The notes beneath the pieces were generated by a model. It was not told where the DNA came from. It made no database searches and saw only the letters and a program-made list of their open reading frames with translations. Positions 37,347-52,103 of a DNA stretch of 64,000 bases are shown one piece after another. Positions within the stretch are counted from its first letter, which is position 1. Each line of letters starts with the position of its first letter. Source of the DNA: Syntrophorhabdaceae bacterium (lineage in GTDB: Bacteria > Desulfobacterota > Syntrophorhabdia > Syntrophorhabdales > Syntrophorhabdaceae); NCBI GenBank assembly GCA_963665295.1, contig OY762209.1:5056001-5120000 (forward strand), given 5' to 3'. The position numbers and the translations under genes are program-made.

Positions 37347-37379
37347 CGCGATACCCGACACCTGAATTCAACCAAGCAT

Positions 37380-37410
37380 ACGCATCCCCGGCGCAAAGCC
37401 GGGGATGCGT
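37380..37410 (+). terminator. Stem-loop downstream of phosphoesterase 1
   Basis: ACGCATCCCCGGC-GCAAA-GCCGGGGATGCGT perfect 13-bp stem; weak U-tail. Confidence 0.6.
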
Positions 37411-37585
37411 CCTATATGCTGATAAAGATGCCCGGCAATTCCACACTTTCTCTTGTAATCCTATCCGGGTGGGCCTATGATACTGTAAGATGCTTCCGTG
37501 GACTTATGCGCAGGCAGGTCTGACCGTTCGCCGCCCGCCCGCACAGGGAGGAATGCGACCGACCACAACAATGAGGAGGTGCACG

Positions 37586-37702
37586 ATGGGAGACAAGGGT
37601 GGGAAAAAAGGCAGGGACAAGGACCAGAAACAGAAGGCAGCGAAGCAGGAGCAAGCCCTGAAGGAAAAGAAGGACAAGGAAGTGAAACGGACGGCCAAAT
37701 AA
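37586..37702 (+). CDS. 38-aa lysine-rich small protein
   Basis: MGDKGGKKGRDKDQKQKAAKQEQALKEKKDKEVKRTAK with ideal SD GAGGAGGT upstream. Confidence 0.65.
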   Translation: MGDKGGKKGRDKDQKQKAAKQEQALKEKKDKEVKRTAK

Positions 37703-37869
37703 GGGAAACGAACGACCCCTCGGCACGGCACGGAGTATCGAAGGCGAGCATAACACCCTTAAGACCATTTCGAGCCGAGCTTCGGGGTATGGACCCGCGG
37801 GACGATGAGGGTATTTCGGGCCGGACGTCTTTCGACCCGGCCCGCCTTTATCTGTCTCCCGGCTTTTGA

Positions 37870-38361
37870 CTATTTGTTCATCATCCTTTTGTGGCTGCTC
37901 ATCTTCATGAACATCACGGACCTCATCTTCTTGAACTGTTCCTCCGTCAGAATAGACCGCATCTGTTTCATGGCCCTCAGCATTTCCAGGTGTTGGGCTG
38001 TCCGCATATCTCCAAGTTTCTTGACCGCAGCGCTCGCCTTATCCAGGTCAAAGTCCTTCACATCCATGATTTCCATCAGATCGATCCGCGCGATCTTCTG
38101 ATCGGCTTTGAACCTGGCTTGTTTCTTCATCATTTCCCTGTGCAAGGACTTCATCTTCGTGATCTGATCATCGGTAAGACCCATACCGACCGCATTCTCC
38201 ACGCATATCCCCATCATAGAGCCCATCATATCCATATCGTGCATACCCGTCATTTGTCCATGTTCCCCCCTGCGGTCGTTCATGGACATGCCCGTCATCT
38301 GTGAGAAAGCGGGCGCTACCAGCAAAACCGTCATCAACAATGCAAATACCAGCTTCTTCAT
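37870..38361 (-). CDS. Periplasmic Spy/CpxP/ZraP-like Met-rich protein
   Basis: Signal peptide, Met/His-rich N-region, GLTDDQ and ILTEEQ (LTxxQ) motifs. Confidence 0.85.
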   Translation of the reverse strand: MKKLVFALLMTVLLVAPAFSQMTGMSMNDRRGEHGQMTGMHDMDMMGSMMGICVENAVGMGLTDDQITKMKSLHREMMKKQARFKADQKIARIDLMEIMDVKDFDLDKASAAVKKLGDMRTAQHLEMLRAMKQMRSILTEEQFKKMRSVMFMKMSSHKRMMNK

Positions 38362-38827
38362 AATTTCCTCCTGTTTATGTGAGAAATGGAAACGTCATTA
38401 ATCCTTTTGATACCTTTGGTCCGACCCGCCGCGGGTCTTATCGCGCCCGACCGCCGGCTCCGCCCTGCAAGGCAGCGGTTCTTGCGTGCCTCCATTTCTG
38501 AACCGCGGGCATCTCCCTGAGAATCTGCACGCACGGGTTACCCCGCCGGCTATTCGGCCTTACCAGGAAGATAAGGATTGAGAAATCGGTTTGCAAGGAC
38601 CGGAGGCAGACGACGTACAGGAATACACGGGCGATCAAAGGGCGTTCCCGTGCTCCCCCCTTCGTTATTGTCTGCATACGAGATGGACCGTCACAAAGAT
38701 GACAGCCCTTCCAACAAGTGATTTCACTTTAAACCCGGTGCAGTGTATAATTTCATATTGTGAACCCGTGGCAGGTTCTTTGCAGAAAATGGATTTCAGA
38801 CATTACAGAGACAAGGGAGGAAAGTCT

Positions 38828-41248
38828 GTGATACACAAAAATGTTACCGAAAACCGGAACAGCCTGCTTTCTCAAAAAAGCTGCATAATCCGAAACGTGA
38901 CCGCACTGTCATTCCTGGTCTTCCTGTTTATTATGACCCTGCCGTTCCACGGATACCCGGCAGGACCCACGTACCCCATCTCCACTGATGTCCAGACCAC
39001 AAGGCAGAGGACAGTACGTCCCTCCCCTATACCCGAAGCGCCGGAGATCCCGATATGGCAGGTCGAGAATTATGCCGGATACGGGTACAGTAACTGGACA
39101 TTCGGAGACCCTGTCGACTACGGCAGACTCTTGCCGGACGGCTCCGAACCTGATGTATCCAACCCGGTCGAAACGCTACTAAATTACTTTTCCATAAGCG
39201 ATACTCACATCACCGACAAGGAATCGCCGGCCCAATCGCTCTACTTCGGGGTGCAGGGAGGTTTTGGAAGCGCCAACCTGCCGATGTACTCACCCGTTAT
39301 GCTGTCCACCACCCACGTTCTTGACGCGGTGGTCCAGACCATCAACGCCCTCAACACGGGGACGCACTTCGATTTCGGCATAGGGCTTGGCGATCCGGCG
39401 AACAGCAACCTGTACAACGGGCTCAGGTGGCATATCGACATTCTCGACGGAAAGTGGATCACTCCGAGCTCGGGTGCGCACAAAGGAGCGAAGACTATCG
39501 ACTACCAGAAACCCTACCAATCGGCGGGGCTCGACAAGTCGATTTCATGGTACCAGGTCATCGGCAACCATGACCAGTATTGGTCCGGCGCCTTCTATCC
39601 CAACGATTACCTTCGAAGCACCCTCGTGGGAAACACCGTTCTCAACATGGGCCTCGTGGGAGGGAACCCTTCCCTTGAGGCGCGCGGCATCTATATGGGC
39701 GTAATTGACGGGACTACCCCCTACGGGACCGTCGAGGACGACGGCGCAGCCTCGACCATGGAGCCGCCGAAGGTAGCCGCCGACAGTCGCCGCCGCGCAC
39801 TCACGACCCCCACGTCGTCGTCCCTGAACTGGATGAAGGAGTTTTTCAACACCACTTCGAAACCGAAGGGCCACGGGTTCACCCAGGCCAATCTCGATCA
39901 GGACTTTGTCTCCTACACCTTCGAGCCCAAATCGAGCGTGCCGGTAAAGGTCATAGTCCTCGACGACACGTGCAAGGAAAACCCGTACTACGGTTCGTAT
40001 TCCCACGGCTGCCTGGATCAGACACGGTATGACTGGCTTGTCAACGAACTTGACCAGGGTCAGGCCGAGGGCAAGCTCATGATCGTCGCCGCCCATGTCC
40101 CGGTAGGACCTCAGACAAATGTCCCCGACGCCCCGATTCCGCCGAACCCGCAGGCCCCCGCCGTTCCCAACGATACGGTCATCCCCATGTTCTTCTCCAC
40201 GTGCAACACTAACCCGACTTCCATAGGGGTCACTTGTGCCGCCGGTGTCGATATATCAAACAATGACCCGGTCTTCCCTTATACCGTCGTCACCGACTGG
40301 ACGCTCCTTCAGACTCTTCATAACTACTCGAACCTCATCCTCTGGATGGCGGGGCACCGTCACATGAATACCGTCACCCCGCAACCCGCACCCGTAGACA
40401 AGGGCCCGGAGTTCGGCTTCTGGGAGGTGGAAACCCCATCGACCAGGGACTTCCCTCAGGGGTTTCGCACATTTCAGATCGTTCGTAACGACAACAATAC
40501 GGTTTCCATATTCGTCACCAACGTGGACCCCGCGGTCCAGAACGGTTCTCCCGCGGACAAGTCCCGTGGGTATGCGATCGGCGCATACAGGATAGCAACC
40601 GGCACGCCCGGTCTCACTGATACCACCTCTCATGTATATAACGCGGAGCTTATCAAGCCCCTTGCCGATCCTTATACCATTACGGTCAACGTGACCGGGC
40701 CCGGTACGGTAGACATGGGCCCCTACCAGGCTGCCACATGCTCCGTGAGCAGCCCTTGTTCGGCGGATTATCTCCCGGGCACGCAGGTGGTCCTTGCCCC
40801 CATTCCCTCCACCGGGGCTGCCTTTACCGGGTGGTCGGTCTGTCCGGGGACATCAACGTGCAACATCATCATGACCGGTGATACCACGGTGACGGCAAGA
40901 TTCATCCAGTCTCCGACCGCGACCGCCGCCCCGACCTACAAAAACTTCCCTGTTACAAAGACCGGGAAGAAGGCCGTCTCCACCTTTACGGTCAGCAATA
41001 CCCGGGCGAAAGGCATCGTTGATCTTGCAATCGGTACCATTTCGATAGGCGGGCTAAACGCAGACCAGTTCCAGGTCGTGGAAGGCAAGGACCGTTGTTC
41101 CGGACAGATTGTCAAGCCGGGCAAGAACTGCACCTTTCAGGTTTCTTTCAATCCCACTTTGACGAATACCCGGGTGGCAACGGTTACGATACCCTCGAAC
41201 GACTCCGCTTCACCTACGACCATACCGATCACCGGAGCGGGAAAATAG
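38828..41248 (+). CDS. Secreted metallophosphoesterase (TIGR03768-like), paralog 2
   Basis: Collinear and highly similar to 34911-37346 (SDTHITDKES, GNHD, GHRH); GTG start behind SD GGGAGG. Confidence 0.85.
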   Translation: MIHKNVTENRNSLLSQKSCIIRNVTALSFLVFLFIMTLPFHGYPAGPTYPISTDVQTTRQRTVRPSPIPEAPEIPIWQVENYAGYGYSNWTFGDPVDYGRLLPDGSEPDVSNPVETLLNYFSISDTHITDKESPAQSLYFGVQGGFGSANLPMYSPVMLSTTHVLDAVVQTINALNTGTHFDFGIGLGDPANSNLYNGLRWHIDILDGKWITPSSGAHKGAKTIDYQKPYQSAGLDKSISWYQVIGNHDQYWSGAFYPNDYLRSTLVGNTVLNMGLVGGNPSLEARGIYMGVIDGTTPYGTVEDDGAASTMEPPKVAADSRRRALTTPTSSSLNWMKEFFNTTSKPKGHGFTQANLDQDFVSYTFEPKSSVPVKVIVLDDTCKENPYYGSYSHGCLDQTRYDWLVNELDQGQAEGKLMIVAAHVPVGPQTNVPDAPIPPNPQAPAVPNDTVIPMFFSTCNTNPTSIGVTCAAGVDISNNDPVFPYTVVTDWTLLQTLHNYSNLILWMAGHRHMNTVTPQPAPVDKGPEFGFWEVETPSTRDFPQGFRTFQIVRNDNNTVSIFVTNVDPAVQNGSPADKSRGYAIGAYRIATGTPGLTDTTSHVYNAELIKPLADPYTITVNVTGPGTVDMGPYQAATCSVSSPCSADYLPGTQVVLAPIPSTGAAFTGWSVCPGTSTCNIIMTGDTTVTARFIQSPTATAAPTYKNFPVTKTGKKAVSTFTVSNTRAKGIVDLAIGTISIGGLNADQFQVVEGKDRCSGQIVKPGKNCTFQVSFNPTLTNTRVATVTIPSNDSASPTTIPITGAGK
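40987..41084 (+). repeat. 98-bp direct repeat, copy 1 (inside phosphoesterase 2 C-terminal domain)
   Basis: Matches 46295-46392 without gaps, about 10 mismatches by manual count. Confidence 0.9.
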
Positions 41249-41274
41249 CCGATTCCCGGTACAAACATGGTCAA

Positions 41275-41321
41275 ATCCCTGGTGGGTCCCCCGGCGCGGA
41301 AACCGGGGACTCACCAGGGAT
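41275..41321. terminator. Hairpin between convergent phosphoesterase 2 and RiPP operon
   Basis: ATCCCTGGTGGGTCCCC...GGGGACTCACCAGGGAT long stem. Confidence 0.65.
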
Positions 41322-41400
41322 ATCGAGTGTCCACCCGCCCGGCCTTTCCTCAGGGAATTCCCGGATTCATTTGTGGGGAGTGTCGGCCATTTTCACCTGT

Positions 41401-42909
41401 TCAGGGCGCCCGGCAGAGCCATTTTCTCCTCTCTTCTTCGTATTTCTCCTCTGCAATCGCCAATCGGGAAGGGTCCACAAGCCACCGCCAGGGAGCATCC
41501 ATATGCCACTGCCGGTGGACGTATTGCCCTATGCACTTGTCGTCAACAAACACTTTCATGGCTCCCCCCGGTACTTTGCCGAATAGAACGAATCTGAGCC
41601 TCAATCTGCCTTGCCCGAAAAAACGCAACATAGACTTGATGTGAAGATATCCGTCGAGCCTTCTCAAAACAATATTCCTGGTATTTCTCAATATTCTTGA
41701 GATGCGGGCATAGGCATAGACGCACATGCCCGCTAAGCCCCCGGCAACCGGGCGATGCCTCCCTTGCCCGTGCACGGCCGTGACACGGCCTTCCACCGCA
41801 CTCATGGGGACCGGGAAGGGGTCGTTTTCAGAGTTGTTGTCGCCGCGGGTCAGGAGACCGTCGGCGTGTACGGCCATGATCCGGTGGACCACCCTGATGC
41901 CCTTTACAGGATCGTGAAAACAGGCGACGTCGCCGCGGCGGGGATTCTTACCGTTGTAGGGTTCAACATCCAGAAAATCGGGCGCTTTCAACGTGGGATA
42001 CATGCTGTTTCCAGAGAGCGTCACACCCCAAGGCATGACCGGAACCCTCACGGAACTGCCGCCGGCAGATGGGTGCGCCACAGGGTATCCGCTCAGAAGG
42101 GGCTCTTTTTTTAACGACTCTTCGACCAGCTTCCAGAATTCTCCGGTCAGACCCAGATGAAGGATGTACGCATGCAGCGCCGCCGTCAGTGCACAGACGA
42201 TCGAGAATTGCCTCAAGCGGTTTTCCCGCACCTCGGGAAGGGATAATTGCCGGTCGAAAACACCGTTTACCTGTCCTACCGAGTCGATAAGCATGGCTGC
42301 AGCCTGGGTCGGATTGATTTCTTCTAAAGTATCTTCCGGGGAGCGACGGAGAAAGTAGAGAGCAGCGAGCGGTACGGCAGCGCCGGTATCCCAGGCGCCG
42401 CCCGGGCCGTCGTCATAAAAGCGGCTCCAAGTCGGCCAGGGATGTGCCAGATACTTTCCCTCCGGATCCCGTACGATAAGGACCGTATCGTCACAGAGCG
42501 AATGCCAGGGAAAAGGGAGCCTTAAAGATGCCGTGGTTTTTCCGGTACCTCCCGGCGCCGCAAAAAGAACCCCTTTCCCTTCGTACTCTGCGAGCGCGCC
42601 ATGCACAAGTACGCCGCCGTGGGTTTGGACTTCATGGGCAATGACCAGGCTAACCTTCATAGCCCTGGATACAAGGTCGAACCTATTTTGGGGTCGGGAG
42701 AAGCGGTAGACAATCATATCATCGTCTACGGAAAAGGCTTCCTCTTGCTCTTCCCGGGCGGTCATAACGCAAAGAGAACGACTCGCGACGCCGGTCTTGA
42801 GCATCATGGCGTTCGCCAGGAGTTCCACGACGGGCTCCATTTCCTTTGTTCCCGCGTGGATTTGTCTTCGGGAGCCGTCAGTCAGAGACAGCAGGTATGA
42901 TTTCCCCAT
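41401..42909 (-). CDS. scmC: SynChlorMet ScmC-like P-loop (HprK-like) protein fused to S24/S26 peptidase domain
   Basis: VHGAL, AAPGGTGKTT (Walker A), LCDD, AHPWPTWS; C-terminal SGNSMYPTL...VVHRI...TRGDNN signal-peptidase-like motifs. Confidence 0.8.
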   Translation of the reverse strand: MGKSYLLSLTDGSRRQIHAGTKEMEPVVELLANAMMLKTGVASRSLCVMTAREEQEEAFSVDDDMIVYRFSRPQNRFDLVSRAMKVSLVIAHEVQTHGGVLVHGALAEYEGKGVLFAAPGGTGKTTASLRLPFPWHSLCDDTVLIVRDPEGKYLAHPWPTWSRFYDDGPGGAWDTGAAVPLAALYFLRRSPEDTLEEINPTQAAAMLIDSVGQVNGVFDRQLSLPEVRENRLRQFSIVCALTAALHAYILHLGLTGEFWKLVEESLKKEPLLSGYPVAHPSAGGSSVRVPVMPWGVTLSGNSMYPTLKAPDFLDVEPYNGKNPRRGDVACFHDPVKGIRVVHRIMAVHADGLLTRGDNNSENDPFPVPMSAVEGRVTAVHGQGRHRPVAGGLAGMCVYAYARISRILRNTRNIVLRRLDGYLHIKSMLRFFGQGRLRLRFVLFGKVPGGAMKVFVDDKCIGQYVHRQWHMDAPWRWLVDPSRLAIAEEKYEEERRKWLCRAP

Positions 42910-42950
42910 GGTCTGTCAACCCTCTCATTCAACATTGCCGGAGAGGGTCT

Positions 42951-44144
42951 TCAACGGACCGTATCCGGCATGAGGCGTGTTGTCCCTTGCGTGCTCCGGC
43001 CTTTCCTGCGGCGACTTGCCGGGAAAAGCCCTTGCCTGTCGGCCTCCCGGCATCGCGTGCCCGCCCATACCATACCTCCCCCTTTCCGGTAGTTTGCGGC
43101 AACGCAGCCGGTGCGGCACACGCGCGAGAGGATGCAATCCCCGCATATTCCCGGATACCCGAGATAATCTTCAAGCTCCCGCCGGAGACTTTGCAGTTTC
43201 GGGTGATGGAACCATATCTCCCGCACGCTGTCGCCCAGACGTCCATAGACAAGGGAGGGGACCGTCTGCCCAATGCCGCACATAGCGATCTCGCCCGTGC
43301 CCAGGATACCCAGAATACCGATGACGCCGCAATCCCCCGTGCGGCCCCCGGTTTCCATGAGCGTCCTGAAAGACCGGACGGCCGGCGGCAAATTGAGGAT
43401 GAAACCCTTGATGGACGTCTTTTCCTTCAGTTCGCCATACACATATTTCTCAAGGGCCCGCAGTTCCGTGATGCCGAGGGTTTCCCTGCGCGCCGTCATC
43501 TGCTTGCCCCGCCCGCTGTCGGTGACAGGATTGAATTTTACCGAGGCCACGCCATGCTTTGCCGCCAGGGATGCAACGCCGTCTATTTGAGAAACGTTTC
43601 CTCTATGGAGGCTCATGATGACCTGCGTGTTGTCGTATCCCGCTTCTTTGAGGCAGTCAAGTCCGCTCAAGGCGGCGGCAAAAGCGCCTCGGGCGCCTCT
43701 GAAGGCGTCGTGCGCCTCCTCGTCGGGATCGTCGAGGCTCACGGAAATGGAGCCTACTTTTGTGTTGTTCTTGAGCCAGTGCGCCAGCTCCCGCGTCATC
43801 AGGGTGCCGTTGGTCTCCATGTTCATGGTGAGGCCCATGTCGGAGAGCCCCGCCGCAATCTCCTTGAAGCGTGGATGAAGAAGGGGCTCGCCGCCCGTGA
43901 GTTTTGCCCTTGTCAATCCCAGGTTTTTGGCCTCTTTCACCGCGGCAAAAAGCGGTTCCGGGTCGATGCATTCCCGCGGGTCGGGCCTGCCGTCGATAAA
44001 ACGCGGCGTGACCCAGCAGTGGCGGCACATGAGGTTGCAGCCGGAGGTGAGATAGAGGTAAAAGGAGCGGAGCGGCGGCACACCTTGCGGCAGCTCCGGG
44101 AAAGATGACGATTCAACGGGAATTTCCGGATCGCAAAGGGACAT
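42951..44144 (-). CDS. scmF: Radical SAM/SPASM peptide maturase, ScmF-like
   Basis: YLTSGCNLMCRHCW, TGGEP, SPASM cysteines CGV...MCGIG...CGDCILSRVCRTGCVA...C; start ATG 44144 after SD GAGGA. Confidence 0.85.
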   Translation of the reverse strand: MSLCDPEIPVESSSFPELPQGVPPLRSFYLYLTSGCNLMCRHCWVTPRFIDGRPDPRECIDPEPLFAAVKEAKNLGLTRAKLTGGEPLLHPRFKEIAAGLSDMGLTMNMETNGTLMTRELAHWLKNNTKVGSISVSLDDPDEEAHDAFRGARGAFAAALSGLDCLKEAGYDNTQVIMSLHRGNVSQIDGVASLAAKHGVASVKFNPVTDSGRGKQMTARRETLGITELRALEKYVYGELKEKTSIKGFILNLPPAVRSFRTLMETGGRTGDCGVIGILGILGTGEIAMCGIGQTVPSLVYGRLGDSVREIWFHHPKLQSLRRELEDYLGYPGICGDCILSRVCRTGCVAANYRKGGGMVWAGTRCREADRQGLFPASRRRKGRSTQGTTRLMPDTVR

Positions 44145-45258
44145 TCTTATCCTCTTTATATTTCTTGTAGCAGTTCCTTGGGTCAACGGCGTTTAACGTG
44201 CCGCATTGGGCGAAAACGACCGCCGGGCAGCCTCCTGTGCAAAATCCGGCATAGCTGCAGTCCCCGCATCCGGCGACCGTGGTGATCGGGGTTTCATAAC
44301 GTGTGCGCAGGATATTGATTTCCCGTCCTGAAAGCCACGCCTCGCGAAGCGGCGTAGAGCCGATCTTCCCCATGACCATAGTAGGCAGCATAGTGCAAGG
44401 GACGATAGCGCCGTCGTGGCGAATCGCCATCTTATTGAAAACTCCGCCACAGGCGGCAAGTTTTCCCCTGCCCGGCAGGCCGGTCTTGCCTTCGGCGAGG
44501 GCTCCTTCGATCTGAGCGACGTTTCTGGTGAAGGCCAGGGGTCCCGCTGCGGCTTTAATGCGTCCCGGGTAGCGCAGGGCAAGCTCTTCCATGGTTTTGA
44601 CGGCCACGTCCCACTCTTCGTTGGAGAGGATCACGTCCTGACCGGAGCAGCGGGCGGAGCCGAAGGGGTTGGCGCCGTCGGTGCTGAAGGATTTCAGCCC
44701 TGCGTCTTCGAGGAGCAGGACGGCGACGTTTTCCAGATCACGCACATTGTAGCGATTGACCGTGACCCGGACGGTAACAGGAAAATCATGTTTCTTGAGC
44801 AGGCGCAACCCGCGCAAAGCCCGCTCGAAGCTCGCAGGCGAACGAGTTGAGTCGTGGATCTCAGGCGTGGCTCCGTCGATGGATACCTGAATGGAATCGA
44901 GGCGCAGCCGGCGCTTGCCTTCACGGAAGGCGTCGATGACCTTGTCGTCGATGAGGGTGCCGTTGGAGAGAACGCTGTAGCGCATGCGGTTTTCGATCAC
45001 GCTGTCAACCAGTGTGAAAAAATCAGGACGAGTAAAGACCTCGCCGCCGCTTAAGGTGAGGCGCTCGACGCCTATTGCACCCGCCTCAACAAAAAACTCA
45101 CGCCACCGATCCGTAGGAAGATCGTCAAGGGCGGTCATTTCATCGGCGTAGAAGCAATAGCGGCACCGGAGGTTGCATTTACCCGTCAGACTGACCTGAA
45201 GGTTCGCGGGTGCGCCGCGTACACCGAAAGGATTGTTTTCACGTCTCCGAGGTTTCAT
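44113..45258 (-). CDS. scmE: Radical SAM/SPASM peptide maturase, ScmE-like
   Basis: LTGKCNLRCRYC, DLPTDRW, NRMRYSVLSNGTL, SPASM CGG...PCTML...CGDCSYAGFCTGGCPA...C. Confidence 0.85.
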   Translation of the reverse strand: MKPRRRENNPFGVRGAPANLQVSLTGKCNLRCRYCFYADEMTALDDLPTDRWREFFVEAGAIGVERLTLSGGEVFTRPDFFTLVDSVIENRMRYSVLSNGTLIDDKVIDAFREGKRRLRLDSIQVSIDGATPEIHDSTRSPASFERALRGLRLLKKHDFPVTVRVTVNRYNVRDLENVAVLLLEDAGLKSFSTDGANPFGSARCSGQDVILSNEEWDVAVKTMEELALRYPGRIKAAAGPLAFTRNVAQIEGALAEGKTGLPGRGKLAACGGVFNKMAIRHDGAIVPCTMLPTMVMGKIGSTPLREAWLSGREINILRTRYETPITTVAGCGDCSYAGFCTGGCPAVVFAQCGTLNAVDPRNCYKKYKEDKNVPLRSGNSR

Positions 45259-45514
45259 CGTGGACGATTACAAAATCGGGCAGCAGGGATTCAATAAACC
45301 TCTCGACATCCTCCTGCACATGCGTGGCGCCTTCGGTGTTTGCCGCCAGATATGCCGAGATTTCCGCGGAGGTCCGGGGCCGGGCGATTCTGTCCCATAT
45401 GAGCCGTCCCGTTTCGTTGATCAGCACCACTTCGTCCGTATCGGGGTTGAAAAGCAGCGCCCCTTCGTCCTCGTCCCTTAGAGACACTACAGGATTTACT
45501 GCGTAACGCTTCAT
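45239..45514 (-). CDS. PqqD-family RiPP recognition element (RRE) 2
   Basis: 91 aa: NPVVSLRDEDEGALLFNPDT..LINETGRLIWDRI...VQEDVERFIESL. Confidence 0.88.
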   Translation of the reverse strand: MKRYAVNPVVSLRDEDEGALLFNPDTDEVVLINETGRLIWDRIARPRTSAEISAYLAANTEGATHVQEDVERFIESLLPDFVIVHDETSET

Positions 45515-45807
45515 AGATTGACCTCATACCCGATTAATCCCGTATCCAGGAGAATATCCAGAATGGCCCGCACATCGTCCTCCAGCGTCGGTGGCGCATC
45601 AATAAAACATTTTGCCGTTTCCTCGATGATGTCCCCCACGGTGCGGACGCCGTTCACGAGCCGCCAGATCAAAAGTCCGGTTGAGTTGAGCGCAAGACCG
45701 GTCGGAACGTCCAGATTGACGATAACCGCCCAGCCGCCTGCGTCTTCCTGCAGGGCATACGCCGGATTGCCGACAGGCAGCGAATCTAAACCGATTTCCC
45801 CGATCAT
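45511..45807 (-). CDS. scmD: PqqD-family RiPP recognition element (RRE) 1, ScmD-like
   Basis: 98 aa: LNSTGLLIWRLVNGVRTVGDII...LEDDVRAILDILLDTGLIG. Confidence 0.85.
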   Translation of the reverse strand: MIGEIGLDSLPVGNPAYALQEDAGGWAVIVNLDVPTGLALNSTGLLIWRLVNGVRTVGDIIEETAKCFIDAPPTLEDDVRAILDILLDTGLIGYEVNL

Positions 45808-45963
45808 TCAGATTTCCATTCAATGTCGTTAAGTTCTATTTATAGCGTATAAATCACTAATTGGCAATCACAATAATATATTGGCGGAATAATTTGTTGA
45901 AGTTGCAATCGTAAATGTGGTATTCAAATGATAAATCACAGATCAAAAGGAGGTTCGGTCAAC

Positions 45964-46164
45964 ATGAAGAAAACATCCTCCCCCACATCGACACCGGTCA
46001 TGGACAGCCCGGAGACTAAAGCGGCCAAGCGGTACGTCCCACCCACTGCGCTTCGGTTCGAATACTCTGTGGCGCACGCAGCCTGCAGCTATGGATCCGA
46101 CGCCCCCACCGGGTGCAGTACCGGCGCCGTCGCCTTCGGCTGCACCAATGGGACCAACGAATAA
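45964..46164 (+). CDS. Candidate RiPP precursor peptide (66 aa; KRYVPP leader, three C-[S/T]-x-G repeats)
   Basis: Strong SD AAAGGAGGT; MKKTSSPTSTPVMDSPETKAAKRYVPPTALRFEYSVAHAACSYGSDAPTGCSTGAVAFGCTNGTNE; divergent from the RRE/rSAM operon. Confidence 0.78.
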   Translation: MKKTSSPTSTPVMDSPETKAAKRYVPPTALRFEYSVAHAACSYGSDAPTGCSTGAVAFGCTNGTNE

Positions 46165-46294
46165 GCAGATAAAGAATGGGGTTTCTTAAGATACCCTGAC
46201 TGCCCCTCTCGCTGCCCGTCCTTACAGCCCGAGGGACTCTCCTACTATCAGGACTATCAACTCCGTGCGGAAGGGCTCTTTGGCTGGGACCGTG

Positions 46295-46392
46295 TACGGT
46301 CAACAATACCCGGACGAAAGGCATGGTTGATCTTGTAATCGGCACCATTTCCATAGGCGGGTTGAACGCGGACCGGTTCCAGGTCGTGGAAG
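46295..46392 (+). repeat. 98-bp direct repeat, copy 2 (orphan fragment of phosphoesterase C-terminal domain)
   Basis: Encodes TVNNTRTKGMVDLVIGTISIGGLNADRFQVVE versus TVSNTRAKGIVDLAIGTISIGGLNADQFQVVE in paralog 2. Confidence 0.9.
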
Positions 46393-46532
46393 TGTCCGCC
46401 CGTACCCTGTCTCTTCCCGGCCTTTCCTCACTGTTAAAGGCGGATTCGCCTTGAAATCAACGAGTGCAGGTGGTAGTAAATAGACAAACCCCGGTCTGAC
46501 CCCGGGCATTGCGTGCTTTTCGCGGAGAAACA

Positions 46533-46997
46533 ATGCAGAACTCCACCGATAATGAAGAGTTGTTTTCCGTCATCAACGAGATGTTCAACGAGATCCCCTT
46601 CAACAGAGTGCTGGGCCTTAGAGTCGAATCACTGGGTCATGACCGGGTCGAGGCTTCATTCGAGATGCGGGATGACCTGCTCGGACACTATTCCCGTCGC
46701 ATGCTCCATGGAGGCGTCATTTCGGCTGTTATCGACGTTACGGGTGGCCTCGCGGCATTCATGGGTGTTGAAGAAAGGATGAGCGGTGAGAGCCTGGAAG
46801 CCAAACTCAAAAAGTTCGGTAAGGTAAGCACCCTTGATCTGCGCGTCGATTTCCTGCGCCCCGGTCTCGGCAACCGGTTTGTCGTAAGGGCCCACACCTT
46901 GAAGACGGGGAGCAAGGTTGCGGTTACAAGAATCGAGTTGAGAAACGATGAGGATGATCTCATTGCCGCGGGCACGGGATCATATATAGTGGCATAA
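46533..46997 (+). CDS. PaaI/hot-dog fold thioesterase (YigI-like)
   Basis: IPFNRVLG, LHGGVISAVID, STLDLRVDFLRPG, IAAGTGSY. Confidence 0.9.
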   Translation: MQNSTDNEELFSVINEMFNEIPFNRVLGLRVESLGHDRVEASFEMRDDLLGHYSRRMLHGGVISAVIDVTGGLAAFMGVEERMSGESLEAKLKKFGKVSTLDLRVDFLRPGLGNRFVVRAHTLKTGSKVAVTRIELRNDEDDLIAAGTGSYIVA

Positions 46998-47009
46998 AGG
47001 AGGCACACC

Positions 47010-47459
47010 ATGTTCGTCCCACCGAAGGTTATTCTCGTTCCCACGGATTTTTCCGGTTTTTCAGACAATGCGCTGCAGTACGCTTTGGATATCGCGGTCC
47101 AGCACGGGGCAACGGTTTATGTACTCAATGTGCGCGAAAGAAAGGTATATTCGGACCACACCGTTACCATGGAGCTTATAGAAAGTATGGAAAAACGAAG
47201 GATCGAGTCTGCACAGCATGAACTTCTCGAAGAACTGAACAAGTTTCCCCTGAGCAAGAACGTGCCTGTTTTGCCCATAGTGCGGATCGGTCTCGACTAT
47301 GAGGAAATACTCAACCTGGAGGACGAACTCGGGGTGAACCTGATCGTGATCGGGTCACACGGAAGGACAGGGGCAATGGCCCTTCTTATGGGAAGCGTGG
47401 CGGAAAAAGTGGCAAGAAACGCAAAGTGCCCCGTATTGGTGGTGAGGACAGCGGGCTGA
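47010..47459 (+). CDS. Universal stress protein
   Basis: ILVPTDFS, LIVIGSHGRTG, LMGSVAEKVARNAKCPVLVV. Confidence 0.95.
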   Translation: MFVPPKVILVPTDFSGFSDNALQYALDIAVQHGATVYVLNVRERKVYSDHTVTMELIESMEKRRIESAQHELLEELNKFPLSKNVPVLPIVRIGLDYEEILNLEDELGVNLIVIGSHGRTGAMALLMGSVAEKVARNAKCPVLVVRTAG

Positions 47460-47560
47460 CGCTTTCCGGCTCCCGGGTTGGAAATGCAATGACACAGGCA
47501 ATCGAATCCGTTGTCGGAATCACCGGTATCGGTTGCCGCAAAGATTGAGAGGGACAAGGA

Positions 47561-49360
47561 ATGAAGAACATTTTGCGGATTCTCGGAGTATTGCTCATTG
47601 GCGCGGTCTGTCTTTTTGCAACGGATTGCCTTGCCCAAGGTAAACCTCCATTGAAGGTTGCCCTCATATTCGACATAGGCGGGAGAGGGGACGGCGGGTT
47701 CAATGATTCCGCATACCATGGTCTTCAAAAAGCGGCCCGCGACTTCAACATAAAGACGGACCTTGTCGAACCCCGGAGAAGTCTGGACAGGGAACAGGCC
47801 TTAAACGCCCTTGCGGTTTCCGATGCGGACATGGTTATTGGAGTGGGGTTCGCCTTTACTGAAAACATGAATGCCCTTGCCGCCCGGTATCCCCAAAAGA
47901 AGTTCGTATGTGTCGATTACGGCGTCAAGCACGACCACAAAGGGGCCGTCATACCCCCTGCGGCAAACCTGGCAGGCCTGCTTTTCAAGGAAGAGGAAGG
48001 CTCTTACCTGGTAGGAGTCATGGCAGCCTTAAGGAGCGGGACAGGCAAGATCGGATTTATGGGCGGCATGGATTGCCCCATCATTCGTAAATTCGAAGCC
48101 GGCTACATGGCGGGCGCCAAGGCGGCGAGGCCCGATATCATCGTGCTGTCACGGTTTGCGGGGATTACGGGAAAGTCGTTCAACGACCCTGAAAAAGGAG
48201 AAGCCATGGCAACCGCCATGTACCGGGATGGGGCGGACGTTATCTTTCACGCCGCCGGACCTACTGGGGAGGGTCTCTTCAAGGCCGCAAAGAAGTTCAA
48301 CAGGTTCGCCATAGGCGTTGACAGCGACCAGTACATGCAGGCGCCCGGTCTAGTCCTCACGAGCATGACCAAGAATGTGGACGTGGCGGTTTTTGAAAGC
48401 ATCAAGTCCCTGGCGGACGGAAACTTCTCCGGGGGCCTCAAGGTTTTCGGCCTGAAAGAGAACGGCGTGGGATTTGTCTATGACGATCACAACAAGGGCC
48501 TCATCCCCCCGGACGCGTACAAAAAGGTCCTCGAGGCGCGGGAAAGGATTATAAAAGGAGAAACCGTCGTCCCCACCTCTACCCAAAACAAGCGGTTATT
48601 TGCAAGATCGGACCTGCGCGAACTCCTTTCCCGGTTGCAGAGCGAGACCCTTGCCGTACTGGCCGGACTGGAGGGGGATCTCACACGAAGCGCCCGGGCC
48701 CTCTCGGGAAAGACGCTCAAGGGCAACCACGCCCGGAAGGTGCTCAAGAAACTCTACGCCTCGAACCCTTATATCATCGATTGTGAAACAGTGAGCAACA
48801 AAGGGATCATGCTCGTGGTGGAGCCGTCCCGGTTCAGTTCATCCGAAGGAGCCGATATAAGCAAGCAGGCACACATGGTGACCCTTTTCCGGACAAAGAA
48901 ACCCGTGTTAAGCGGGGCCTTCCGTTCCGTTGAGGGCCCGGAGGCGGTGGCGTTCCATTATCCTGTCTTCTCTTCCCCGGGCAAGACATTTTCAGGGTCC
49001 GTGTCAACCCTTTTCGCTCCCGAATACCTTTTGTCCCGCATAATAGGCCCCGTCGCATCTCTCCAGCCCGTGGATATATCGCTCATGCAGACGGACGGCA
49101 GGATGATCTACGACATAGACACAAAACAGATAGGCTTGAATGCCTTCACCGACCCCCTGTATCAGCCGTTCCCCGAGGTCCTTGCCCTCGTCAAGAAGGT
49201 AGCCGCGGAAAAGGAAGGCACCGCCACCTACCGTTTCTACCGTCAGGGATCACAGACACCCGTAGTAAAAGAAGCCCACTGGAAGACCATAGCCTTCCAC
49301 GGTGCCGAGTGGAGGCTCATAGTAGCCTGTTCAAAGGATGACATGGAACCGGACAAATAG
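47561..49360 (+). CDS. BMP/PnrA-family periplasmic binding protein fused to a C-terminal Cache-like domain
   Basis: GGRGDGGFNDSA, FKEEEGSYLVG, FHAAG, AIGVDSDQ; extra ~250 aa with GADISKQAH, QTDGRMIYD..QIGLNAFTDPLY, WRL. Confidence 0.8.
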   Translation: MKNILRILGVLLIGAVCLFATDCLAQGKPPLKVALIFDIGGRGDGGFNDSAYHGLQKAARDFNIKTDLVEPRRSLDREQALNALAVSDADMVIGVGFAFTENMNALAARYPQKKFVCVDYGVKHDHKGAVIPPAANLAGLLFKEEEGSYLVGVMAALRSGTGKIGFMGGMDCPIIRKFEAGYMAGAKAARPDIIVLSRFAGITGKSFNDPEKGEAMATAMYRDGADVIFHAAGPTGEGLFKAAKKFNRFAIGVDSDQYMQAPGLVLTSMTKNVDVAVFESIKSLADGNFSGGLKVFGLKENGVGFVYDDHNKGLIPPDAYKKVLEARERIIKGETVVPTSTQNKRLFARSDLRELLSRLQSETLAVLAGLEGDLTRSARALSGKTLKGNHARKVLKKLYASNPYIIDCETVSNKGIMLVVEPSRFSSSEGADISKQAHMVTLFRTKKPVLSGAFRSVEGPEAVAFHYPVFSSPGKTFSGSVSTLFAPEYLLSRIIGPVASLQPVDISLMQTDGRMIYDIDTKQIGLNAFTDPLYQPFPEVLALVKKVAAEKEGTATYRFYRQGSQTPVVKEAHWKTIAFHGAEWRLIVACSKDDMEPDK

Positions 49361-49439
49361 GATAGGGGCCGGGGGGAGACAGGCGTCTCAAGGGCTTGTG
49401 GATGTCCCCGGCGCTACCCCCGTCAGGGGCCGACGGAGG

Positions 49440-49540
49440 GTTCTCCCCGGTTGCGTCTCCCGTTATTTTGCGTATTATCTGAGGAACAAGCCCTTCGCTG
49501 AAACCGGCCACAAAGGACCGGAACATCAGCTTGGCGAACT
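49440..49540 (-). pseudogene. Relic C-terminus of a membrane protein (AGFSERLV-type motif)
   Basis: Reads FAKLMFRSFVAGFSEGLVPQIIRK, one-base changes away from the recalled FAKLxxWSFxAGFSERLVP motif; no plausible 5' part. Confidence 0.5.
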
Positions 49541-49572
49541 CGCAACCGGATTGGGGGGGCCGAGCGCCGTAA

Positions 49573-49800
49573 TCACTTTTCAACCGTTTGCGAAATCAGT
49601 ACCTTCTCAAGATCCTTTATGGGTAGGGTGAACACGTTCCTGCCGAAGGGATACGCCTCTTCCCCTGGATAGAAGGCAAGGCCCGCCCTGCAACCAAGGC
49701 CCTCGAAGGCGTTCCGGAGCCCCTTCGTTATCGACGGACTCAAGGAATACTTCACCTCGACCGCGACAGAGTGCGAACAAGGCCGGAGTCCCGGACAAGG
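49573..49800 (-). pseudogene. Relic of AAA-ATPase/DUF4143 gene 3' end
   Basis: Out-of-frame joined pieces VRDSGLVRTL and AVEVKYSLSPSITKG...YPGEEAYP, typical of DUF4143 C-termini. Confidence 0.6.
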
Positions 49801-49865
49801 AGGTAGTGATGTAGTTTAAGATGTCCCTGATGGCTCTCCTGATCGTAAACAGATTCAGTCATCGA

Positions 49866-51914
49866 TCATTCGAGGGTGCCCTTCCCCGTCCCGGGTTTCA
49901 GGAAGACCGCAGTAACCGCACGGGCTTTATCCATGGTAACTATACAAGGCTCCGTGCCCGGACAATTCAGGGAAGCAGGTTTCCATCCCGTGAAAAGGGA
50001 ATCATTGTTTGCGGTTGCCGTGAGGGTTACCGCGTCATGGAAGGGATAGTATGCGGAGCAGGTGGAGCCGCAGGTGATACCGGAAGGCACGCTTGTCACG
50101 ACGCCATTGCCCTTTCCCATCTTGCGCTTTGAAACGGTCAGCTTCTGAGTTCCCGCAAACGTGGCGACCACTGTTTTTGCCTTATCCATGGTGACCGAAC
50201 AGGCTCCGGTCCCCGAACAGGCTCCGGTCCATCCCGTGAAGGTGGAGTTCGCTTCCGGGGAAGCAGAAAGGACCACCGCGTCATGGAAGGGATAGTATGC
50301 GGAGCAGGTGGAGCCGCAGGTGATACCGGAAGGCACGCTTGTCACGACGCCATTACCACCCTTTCCCGTCTTGCGCTTTGAAACGGTCAGCTTCTGAGGT
50401 CCCGCAAACGTGGCGACCACTGTCTTTGCCTTATCCATGGTGACCGAACAGGCTCCGGTCCCCGAACAGGCTCCGGTCCATCCCGTGAAGGTGGAGTTCG
50501 CTTCCGGGGAAGCAGAAAGGACCACAAGAGTGTTCGGATAGTAGCGAGTTCTGCAATGGGTGCCGCAATCGATCATGCCGTCCGTGCTCGTAATGGCTCC
50601 ATTCCCTGAATTCATCCTTCTCCTGATTGCTGCAAGCTCAACCTTCTTCGTCTCTGCCGGCTCAAACACAGCGGTCACATTCATATCGCTGCTCATGACT
50701 ACGGTGCATGTGGGTGATGCCCCGATACACGCTCCTGTCCAGTAAGCAAAGACAGACCCGGAAGCGGCTGCTGCAGTGAGCGTTACAGTGGTGTCGGGGA
50801 TAAAACGGGCGGCACAGGTTACGCCACAATCAATTTCGGCAGAAGAAGAACCAATGCTGCCGGAGCCGTTGCCGCATCTCGTGACAGCGAGGATGGGGAT
50901 GGCCGGCGACAGGAAGGCATAGGGCCCGCCGGATGTAGTATAGAAATACCCCACCACATCTCCTGCGTTATTTATGGCGGTGGCATAGGCCGTTGTTCCT
51001 CCCGGCGGAGTTCCGAGGTCCATCATGGCCCCATTGCTGTAAAGAAAAGCGCGGATATCGCTATCGTCATTATAAGAAATTCCCACCACCTGCCCTGCGT
51101 CGTTGATGCCATAGGCATAACTATTGGTTCCTCCCGGCAGGGTTCCGAGGTCCGTCATGGTCCCATCACTGTAAAGAAAAGCACGGACCAGATGATCCGC
51201 AGTATTGGCATAACCCACCACCTGTCCTGCGTTATTGATACCAAAGGCGTGACTATAGGTTCCTCCCGGCAGGGTTCCGAGGTCCGTCATGGTCCCATCA
51301 CTGTAAAGAAAAGCATGGTTGCTGCCGGAGGCAGCCCCTACTACCTGTCCGGCGTCGTTGATGCCATAGGCATCAACAGAGTACCCGAGTTTGATCAGCC
51401 GACGACTATTAACATTAAAAAGAAAAGACCAGGAGGTAACAATGCTCATTGGTCCTATTTCGTTGTAATACCCCACCGCGTCTCCGGCATTATTGACGCC
51501 ACGGGCAATGGTGTATGATAGCCTTTTTGGCGGATATCCGAAATGGATCACCGTTCCATTGGTGTAATAAAAGTTGCCCAAAGAGGACAACCCTACCACA
51601 TCCCCCGCGTCGTTAATACCGGTTCCGTGGCTATACTCCTCTCCTATCAGGACTCCGATATCCGTCATGGTCCCATCGCTAAAAAGAAAGGCGTGATACT
51701 GACCGGATGAAGTAACGGCTGTTCCCACTACCTGTCCGGCGTTGTTGATGTCCTTGGCCTGGCTCCAGGCTCCTCCCAAGGTTCCGAGGTTGATCATGTT
51801 TTCGGCTGCAAATGATCCGGGGGGATAGGACAAGAAAACCAGAAGGGTGTACAAAAATAGAGTTCCCGGAATACCCACCACAGATTTCGTTCGTCGCTGA
51901 GAACTTTTCTCCAT
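49866..51914 (-). CDS. Secreted HAF-repeat protein with four C-terminal InlB-B-like repeats
   Basis: Signal peptide ending SFA; about 7 repeats of (H/R)AFLYSDGTMTDLGTLPGGxxSxAxGINxAGQVVG. Confidence 0.88.
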   Translation of the reverse strand: MEKSSQRRTKSVVGIPGTLFLYTLLVFLSYPPGSFAAENMINLGTLGGAWSQAKDINNAGQVVGTAVTSSGQYHAFLFSDGTMTDIGVLIGEEYSHGTGINDAGDVVGLSSLGNFYYTNGTVIHFGYPPKRLSYTIARGVNNAGDAVGYYNEIGPMSIVTSWSFLFNVNSRRLIKLGYSVDAYGINDAGQVVGAASGSNHAFLYSDGTMTDLGTLPGGTYSHAFGINNAGQVVGYANTADHLVRAFLYSDGTMTDLGTLPGGTNSYAYGINDAGQVVGISYNDDSDIRAFLYSNGAMMDLGTPPGGTTAYATAINNAGDVVGYFYTTSGGPYAFLSPAIPILAVTRCGNGSGSIGSSSAEIDCGVTCAARFIPDTTVTLTAAAASGSVFAYWTGACIGASPTCTVVMSSDMNVTAVFEPAETKKVELAAIRRRMNSGNGAITSTDGMIDCGTHCRTRYYPNTLVVLSASPEANSTFTGWTGACSGTGACSVTMDKAKTVVATFAGPQKLTVSKRKTGKGGNGVVTSVPSGITCGSTCSAYYPFHDAVVLSASPEANSTFTGWTGACSGTGACSVTMDKAKTVVATFAGTQKLTVSKRKMGKGNGVVTSVPSGITCGSTCSAYYPFHDAVTLTATANNDSLFTGWKPASLNCPGTEPCIVTMDKARAVTAVFLKPGTGKGTLE
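50031..50523 (-). repeat. Intragenic near-identical tandem duplication (~245 bp x2)
   Basis: 50031-50274 versus 50277-50523 almost identical, with one 3-nt indel. Confidence 0.9.
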
Positions 51915-52103
51915 GACGATCCCCCCTTCCGCCCACACACCGGTGAACCGGTTATGGGCCCCTTCATTCAACCTGTGCTACTCTATGCAGGTATTGTCAA
52001 TACCATAAATCCGCCTCTGCCGACCAAAAATCAAAACTGCATAATTCAAAGATGACTGAAGAATTAAAAGGAGCAGTAAAGGGACCGGCCCTTTTACGCC
52101 CGT

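Follow-up and report, generated by a model that had tools for sequence, protein, structure and literature searches.

The SynChlorMet (SCM) cassette was defined in silico through the NCBIfam models TIGR04248 (ScmD), TIGR04249 (ScmC), TIGR04250 (ScmE), TIGR04251 (ScmF) and TIGR04252 (ScmA). Here we analysed a six-gene cassette of this type in 64,000 nucleotides (nt) of DNA from a Syntrophorhabdaceae bacterium (GenBank assembly GCA_963665295.1, contig OY762209.1, positions 5,056,001 to 5,120,000 of the forward strand). The whole stretch is called the window below, and positions refer to it. Like SynChlorMet, the cassette clusters PqqD, two radical SAM/SPASM enzymes and ScmC in the order D-E-F-C. 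Unlike it, the window has two RiPP recognition elements (RREs; RiPP, ribosomally synthesised and post-translationally modified peptide), a kinase fused to a peptidase and a divergent precursor gene, it has no linked exporter or NTP_transf_5 gene, and just its ScmC passes the curated cut-off. Our best overall reading, for and against which the case is about evenly balanced, is a RiPP of SynChlorMet type, matured by Cys-Gly rings, phosphate and removal of the leader. The Scm cassette is widespread, no product was found in the literature searched, and databases already predict a system of this kind as well as its precursor. The open literature yielded no paper on the cassette; subscription journals outside the search may hold one.

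Parts of this gene set occur in described peptide systems. In the system for linear polyphosphorylated peptides (LPP) of Paenibacillus alginolyticus (LppA-K-B-S-D-N), the archaeal-type peptidase LppS (S29, H68, D93) removes a YxxP leader with its Tyr at −16, solely with the RRE, and the HprK-like LppK polyphosphorylates Ser3 (Popov et al. 2026, PMC13381572). A table of that paper files TIGR04249 67 times under 'HprK kinase'. The window shares with LPP a YxxP leader, a stand-alone RRE, an HprK-like kinase and an archaeal-type Ser-His-Asp signal peptidase, and related Scm loci share an NTP transferase, an ABC exporter and a frequent link to polysaccharide loci. Unlike LPP, for which the main text of the paper mentions no radical SAM enzyme (PMC13381572), the window has two. 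The conserved Ser3 is a further difference, and the likeness of the two systems is one of gene content and motifs, not of compared Lpp and Scm sequences. Instead of the LPP leader motif YxxPxVLxHQxIxFETxxS, the Scm family has YxxPxAx[RD]L...[AG]xG, and the leader ends differ accordingly (FET in LPP, [AG]-x-G/A in Scm). The linked NTP transferase and MsbA-like exporter of the LPP type are absent at the window locus, with unlinked homologues elsewhere.

A precedent for ring formation is streptosactin, in which a SPASM enzyme makes an alpha-thioether between Cys31 and Gly34 (review PMC8172795). Streptosactin/GggB, a type II unnested sactipeptide system, resembles the window in its forward four-residue units from Cys to the +3 position, the Gly acceptor in one of these units and its SPASM enzyme. 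Unlike the window, it has one enzyme, two rings, also a Ser acceptor and no kinase, and here too the likeness is one of features rather than of compared sequences. In thuricin CD, TrnC and TrnD form an obligate radical SAM pair with one essential chemistry; the chemistry of TrnD, itself active as a radical SAM enzyme, can be dispensed with (Jia et al. 2025, PMC12093266). TrnC has a seven-Cys SPASM pattern, and AuxI has three Cys ligands (PMC12093266). The window resembles thuricin CD in having two radical SAM enzymes per cluster, a Cys-containing precursor and the seven-Cys SPASM pattern of TrnC.

Gene content and relation to the SynChlorMet models

All six frames of the cassette are present in the window, and the genes are real. 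Five minus-strand genes with overlapping or near-abutting ends (D1, D2, ScmE, ScmF and a ScmC/S26 fusion) and a divergent short peptide gene lie just where the first-pass annotation had placed them. An Scm model was the best NCBIfam match for five of the six proteins. D1 (98 amino acids (aa), 45511–45807, minus strand) and D2 (91 aa, 45239–45514, minus strand) are stand-alone RREs of the PqqD family. They scored 47 and 34 bits on TIGR04248, the best model for both, at a cut-off of 100. The ScmE-like radical SAM/SPASM enzyme (381 aa, 44113–45258, minus strand) reached 365 bits on TIGR04250, its best model, with the next model at 122 (margin 243). The ScmF-like enzyme (397 aa, 42951–44144, minus strand) reached 299 bits on TIGR04251, again the best model, with the next at 119 (margin 180); both cut-offs are 400. 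The fusion of an HprK-like ScmC kinase with an S26 peptidase (502 aa, 41401–42909, minus strand) passed TIGR04249 with 148.7 bits (cut-off 125). Pfam cut-offs were passed by D1 and D2 (PF05402, 50.8 and 42.9 bits), both enzymes (PF04055) and the fusion (PF10502). The match to the SynChlorMet set claimed earlier is upheld for type, gene set and best models; D, E, F and A fall below their cut-offs. Heme-pathway models (AhbC/D, NirJ), which had been raised as possible better homes for the two enzymes, gave at most 119 bits at cut-offs of 500–650, and the assignment of the enzymes to a peptide system came through this check. The PapB model gave 75 bits (cut-off 340).

A scan for ScmE found 302 relatives among 370 stretches of species-level genomes, and the best 80 were kept. 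Eight regions of related genomes were added and one duplicate was removed (L036 repeats L012), giving 87 tabulated loci (L-numbers below denote these and other genomic regions). Of these loci, 44 were well flanked, with at least 2.5 kilobases (kb) upstream and 5 kb downstream. ScmF and PqqD were present in all 44, the S26 peptidase in 43 and ScmC in 41. Record titles of the best 80 of the 302 relatives named Anaerolineae, Desulfobacterota-type deltaproteobacteria, WOR-3, Elusimicrobia and Methanothrix. A FastTree phylogeny of 75 ScmE proteins, rooted at the midpoint, placed the window enzyme with those of L029, L030, L034, L035, L011 and L012; they fall in a large clade separate from the ScmE proteins over the cut-off. 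Judged from these comparisons, the cassette belongs to a large divergent branch mostly missed by the curated cut-offs and would work like SynChlorMet.

Among the close kin of the host, the distribution was patchy. ScmE was found in none of three same-genus genomes, the cassette in two of 24 family genomes and, elsewhere in the phylum, ScmE above the TIGR04250 cut-off in 14 of 300 genomes. Three loci (L123, L124, L128) had over-cut-off ScmE genes without ScmF, ScmC or precursor within the stretch examined. The claim that the host is an anaerobe is plausible on mixed evidence, with five FeFe-hydrogenase domain matches in its favour and one COX1-family match against it.

The precursor peptide and its family

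The divergent gene (45964–46164, plus strand) encodes a ScmA-like peptide of 66 aa that is very probably the substrate of the cassette, as the first-pass annotation had proposed. Its likeliest start is ATG 45964 behind an upstream AGGAGG; the longer open reading frame would give 78 aa. The peptide had no direct match in NCBIfam or Pfam. The seed of a precursor profile came from short frames filtered for CxxG or YxxP, which gave one recurring family. A version built from 30 peptides, with the window peptide excluded, ranked the window peptide first among the 99,165 stop-to-stop segments of the 5.5 Mb host genome (25.6 bits, E 6e-5; next segment 16.3). With 83 peptides in the profile it scored 27.4 bits, against 16.3 for the next segment. 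The family comprised 84 peptides in 65 loci at >18 bits, window included, and a precursor was found in 41 of the 44 well-flanked ScmE loci. In 13 fresh loci with an over-cut-off ScmE, not used for the profile, nine peptides were found in eight; of the other five, three had no ScmF and two were short contigs. The peptide alignment matched three of 69 host-family genomes, exactly those used to build it, and none of the other 66. Searching a protein database with it gave 10 matches among 342 candidates, all named 'hypothetical' at most. Most precursors in L022–L101 (73/77) lie on the strand of ScmE, while that of the window lies on the opposite one. Broken copies were also seen: an in-frame stop interrupts the core of a precursor gene in L016 (9510–9776) and in L027 (6348–6596), and ScmE lies in three pieces in L038 (7953–9085). 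In one L016 precursor the in-frame TGA falls outside the Cys positions, and selenocysteine was rejected there.

The SynChlorMet set had been described as lacking an identified precursor. NCBIfam does hold one, TIGR04252 (SCM_precur_ScmA, cut-off 35). The window peptide gave no match to this model. Ten of 69 family members matched at E ≤ 1, five at E ≤ 0.022 and colinear, and the best of them scored 31.4 bits. At E 0.001 the model missed 10 of the 11 peptides of canonical loci. The missed ones include that of L017, where ScmC, D, E and F all pass. Nothing exceeded its cut-off in 401 genomes, nor in 21 genomes with ScmE (best relative 32.5 bits), and its four best genome matches all scored 29.5–48.7 bits on the new precursor profile. 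We read the precursor family as a broadened ScmA, for which TIGR04252 appears too narrow.

The leader consensus of the family is Y-x-x-P-x-A-x-[R/D]-L, with Gly at Y+16 in 57 of 83 leaders. Small residues at Y+14 and Y+16 occurred in 58 of the 83, compared with a shuffle mean of 22 and a maximum of 34 in 1000 shuffles; small residues at −3 and −1 are the signal-peptidase cleavage pattern. In the window peptide the RRE motif is Y24-x-x-P27, and the leader is one residue shorter than in the family, which puts the equivalent site at A37-H38-A39. A cut after A39 is suggested, since Tyr24 would then be at −16, as in LPP, in agreement with the A-x-A site. The predicted 27-aa core contains three C-x-x-G units (C41/G44, C51/G54, C60/G63). 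The same cut would make Ser42 core residue 3, a position that is not conserved in the family.

Core statistics were based on 82 peptides, two broken ones being dropped. The cores hold 3–10 Cys, mostly 10–11 residues apart; their sequences are hypervariable and the C-terminus is not fixed. Gly stood at +3 for 267 of 375 core Cys and at +4 for 95 more (362/375), and at neither position for 13. In 500 shuffles of the cores, 39% of Cys had Gly at +3/+4, with a maximum of 46%. CxxG only was found in 33 peptides, CxxxG only in 7 and both in 42. The CX3D ranthipeptide motif has Asp/Glu four residues past Cys; unlike such ranthipeptides, the family has Asp/Glu at C+4 for 22 of 377 core Cys. The computed mass of the window core is 2539.99 unmodified, 2533.94 with three rings and 2613.91 with three rings and one phosphate. 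The family profile yields residue-level predictions. With six genes, a core of the shortest kind and three identical ring motifs, the window copy is compact and a convenient test case.

Proposed maturation and alternative readings

Both radical SAM enzymes carry CxxxCxxC and seven SPASM Cys and have no room for an N-terminal RRE. The ten Cys were invariant in 81 ScmE and 72–73 ScmF homologues, and there was no invariant eighth SPASM Cys. A seven-Cys SPASM domain together with a Cys-rich core, as in sactipeptides, is necessary for the ring reading, not diagnostic of it. Predicted structures had pLDDT values of 91 (ScmE) and 93 (ScmF). In PDB sequence searches, SkfB and PqqE were the best matches for the enzymes, and HPr kinase was a weak match for ScmC (E 0.2–0.3). 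A ScmE-ScmF complex prediction scored under the mark with its controls not folded, and carries no weight in either direction. A flagged TGA in the ScmE of two genomes (G013, G023) was the stop of the gene, and selenocysteine was rejected there as well.

In the fusion protein, the kinase motifs are H103, a P-loop at 118–126 and D140-D141. The S26 motifs, of archaeal/SipW type, are S302, H342 and the Asp of GD motifs at 327 and 357. Its S26 domain came nearest to the archaeal signal peptidase model TIGR02228 (48.8 bits, cut-off 51.85). His, P-loop and acidic pair were kept in 46 of 53 ScmC homologues with a P-loop, and the SM..HR..GD peptidase motif in 57 of 62 S26 homologues, of which 19 have the kinase-peptidase fusion form. 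Hydrophobicity of the 502-aa protein gave no N-terminal anchor; the most hydrophobic 19-residue stretch (1.7, residues 237–255) closes the kinase part. The C-terminal part belongs to no known family, and an atlas look-up of the last 118 residues gave no usable match. Among the long PqqD proteins of Scm loci, 18 of 22 (L024, L025, L047, L057 and others) are tandem double RREs, a fused form of D1 and D2.

In the pathway we propose, the RRE proteins would bind the YxxP leader and present the peptide to the enzymes that have no RRE of their own. The radical SAM/SPASM enzymes would then remove the C-alpha hydrogen of Gly and join the Cys sulfur to it. We lean slightly towards three small unnested alpha-thioether (sactionine) rings, C41-G44, C51-G54 and C60-G63, each −2 Da, as the result. 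This is based on the enrichment of Gly over shuffles, the streptosactin precedent, the seven-Cys SPASM pattern shared with TrnC and the rarity of Asp/Glu at C+4. The ScmC domain would, somewhat probably, phosphorylate a core Ser or Thr, as indicated by its kept His, P-loop and acidic pair, the filing of TIGR04249 in the LPP paper and the LppK precedent. Finally, the fused Ser-His-Asp peptidase would probably cut after A39 and free the 27-aa core. Its SM..HR..GD motif, the small residues at Y+14/Y+16 and the LppS precedent all point to this step.

The weakest step of this reading is the role of the second enzyme, and the two radical modifications claimed by the first-pass annotation stay hypothetical. 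By a weak analogy with TrnC/TrnD, ScmE and ScmF may both be needed and work as one pair on a single chemistry; the presence of ScmF in 44/44 loci, whether the peptides hold CxxG only or CxxxG only, suggests this. One enzyme per ring size is disfavoured: 25 CxxG-only loci, the window included, and the CxxxG-only loci L028 and L040 keep both enzymes. If true, the proposed pathway joins two modules known separately, the LPP kinase/peptidase and sactionine rings, and explains the constant retention of two radical SAM enzymes. Export and any nucleotidyl transfer would go through unlinked genes or be absent here. A cofactor is a less likely product than a peptide that is exported or associated with the envelope; the intracellular, cofactor-like product suggested by the first-pass annotation is disfavoured by hypervariable cores with 3–10 Cys and by the exporters of related loci.

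Several points weigh against the proposed pathway. For the precursor, a leader-only profile ranked the window peptide fifth (8.3 bits), and its leader has Phe where 73 of 83 have Leu. The seed filter for CxxG makes the Gly count partly circular. Ala, Pro or Val stands three residues past the Gly in 273 of 360 units, which one ring chemistry does not explain. No Ser/Thr position of the core is conserved (at most 41%), unlike Ser3 of LPP, and the P-loop pattern was not matched by 13 of the 66 sequences that resemble ScmC. Other chemistries, too, use seven-Cys SPASM domains (MftC, PqqE). Fold searches with both predicted structures single out no SPASM chemistry, as CteB, SuiB, SkfB and anSME ranked alike (13–22% identity, TM 0.6–0.7), which is not diagnostic. 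No biochemistry for any Scm protein was found in the literature searched, and the sactionine precedent is known through a review (PMC8172795).

Two different reactions are an unlikely explanation, though the strongest of the alternatives. One enzyme would close the Cys-Gly thioethers and the other would act at a second position of the 10–11-residue repeat, for example by epimerising or desaturating the Ala/Pro/Val at G+3. The frequency of these residues fits such a reaction. Both enzymes keep all radical SAM/SPASM Cys together with conserved motifs of their own, they score just 77 bits against each other, and L041 has two ScmF and five precursors. However, Pro at G+3 (82/360 units) would more readily mark a structural position than a reactive one, and an active radical SAM enzyme can have dispensable chemistry, as TrnD does (PMC12093266). 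Quite unlikely is a broader version, a hybrid RiPP class in many anaerobic bacterial lineages and methanogenic archaea that joins an LPP-type kinase/peptidase module to two radical SAM enzymes. One enzyme would string 3–10 small Cys-to-Gly rings of two sizes, and the other would carry out a second, undescribed reaction per repeat. A nucleotidyltransferase, here in trans from an exopolysaccharide locus, would decorate the phosphate and tie the product to the cell envelope.

The Cys might also not be linked to Gly at all. They could be converted otherwise, as in the thio-oxazole or thioamide type of which SbtM is an example, or stay free for metal, with Gly making a turn. In line with this, the Cys-to-Gly distance of 3 or 4 varies within 42 of 82 peptides, and SbtM was among the weak model matches (59–63 bits). 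We find this very doubtful: SbtM stayed far under its cut-off of 350, and a near-invariant Gly at a fixed short distance agrees with known sactionine (PMC8172795).

The cassette had been described as complete and self-contained, which is doubtful. A full-length ABC exporter was present in 26 of the 44 well-flanked loci and in both closest relatives, NTP_transf_5 likewise in 26 of 44, and unlinked homologues of both lie in the host genome. The closest family relatives, L011 and L012, carry D1-D2-E-F-A-C/S26-ABC-NTP5 in one direction. Compared with them, the window misses ABC and NTP5, its precursor is flipped to the other end and a direct repeat brackets the cassette. These differences, and the lack of ScmE in the same-genus genomes, would suit a reduced, partly stranded copy that had lost its exporter and nucleotidyltransferase and made no finished product, or made it via unlinked genes. 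Such stranding is highly improbable. All frames and catalytic motifs are intact, and the short form is not rare, since 18 of the 44 well-flanked loci (e.g. L027, L028, L038) are also without an ABC gene. Moreover, the only NTP_transf_5 gene of the host (C1:2870074-2871306, L102, where C1 is a contig of the host genome) groups with the copies that are linked to cassettes in L022, L011 and L012 (support 0.96 and 0.80; tree without outside controls). This gene stands at the end of an exopolysaccharide locus (Wzz, Wza/SLBB, YjbH).

An unlinked ABC exporter (C1:391426), inside a lasso-like cluster of the host genome, is 39–40% identical to Scm-linked ones and falls near them in the ABC tree, on long branches with weak support. 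Another exporter (C1:3121763), among lipid A genes by neighbour reading, is probably MsbA. From these homologies, help in trans by the unlinked exporter and NTP_transf_5 is possible.

Finally, action of the enzymes on a small molecule (heme d1/Ahb type) or in making a PQQ- or mycofactocin-like cofactor, with the peptide as bystander or feedstock, is barely credible: AhbD was the second-best model for ScmF with 119 bits and came third for ScmE with 116, and the window locus has no exporter, but the Scm models are ahead by 180–240 bits, RRE, peptide and peptidase co-occur with the enzymes across loci, and the cores differ greatly in sequence, hold 3–10 Cys and lack a fixed C-terminus.

Locus layout and neighbouring genes

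Gene overlaps along the minus strand are 4 nt (D1/D2), 20 nt (D2/E) and 32 nt (E/F), the last counted from ATG 44144, which is a likelier start for ScmF (397 aa) than TTG 44186. A gap of 41 nt separates ScmF from ScmC. The divergent units are separated by an AT-rich spacer of 156 nt (45808–45963, 32% G+C) that probably holds both promoters. A promoter scan found one site, against 2.4 expected by chance, and a terminator scan was likewise at chance level.

The cassette sits between two copies of a 98-nt direct repeat, derived from the Ig-like tail of a metallophosphoesterase gene. The left copy (40987–41084, plus strand) is within the 3' end of that gene, left of the cassette. The right copy (46295–46392, plus strand; 90% identical) is a relic piece of the same gene family, and a weaker copy lies at 37085–37182. 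The repeat is probably the scar of an insertion or rearrangement. In two of four public sequencing runs, one contig each covers positions 39500–48000 with no difference. Since those runs may be the source of the window DNA, the agreement speaks against a splice made in the final assembly and no more. As claimed earlier, no transporter gene was found in the cassette or in the seven flanking genes scanned (34911–51971).

Other peptide systems were seen in the host genome and beside related cassettes. Two lasso-peptide-like clusters (C1:385087-393255, L020 and L103; C1:5486537-5489063, L021) combine PqqD with an asparagine-synthase-type cyclase. The first adds an HprK-like kinase, a sulfotransferase and the ABC exporter related to Scm-linked ones. 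A second radical SAM peptide system (C1:660112-666436, L019), which we take to resemble the geopeptide/GeoRSP type, has three radical SAM genes (one fused to a kinase-like part), PqqD and an S26 peptidase. It also has two small Cys peptides with a different leader; the one that was scanned had no NCBIfam match. Upstream of Scm cassettes, on the opposite strand, genes of this second type of peptide system were present in L040 (1–1400) and L041 (1–996), both Methanothrix, and in the bacterial L054 (2179–5923). Several RRE pathways can thus share a locus.

Left of the window cassette, two metallophosphoesterase paralogues (TIGR03768) that carry InlB-like and choice-of-anchor D domains lie in tandem at 34911–37346 and 38591–41248. 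Blocks of their DNA are about 75–80% alike, and a Spy/CpxP-like gene separates them. On the other side, the product of 47561–49360 joins a substrate-binding domain of Bmp type to a Cache-like sensor domain.

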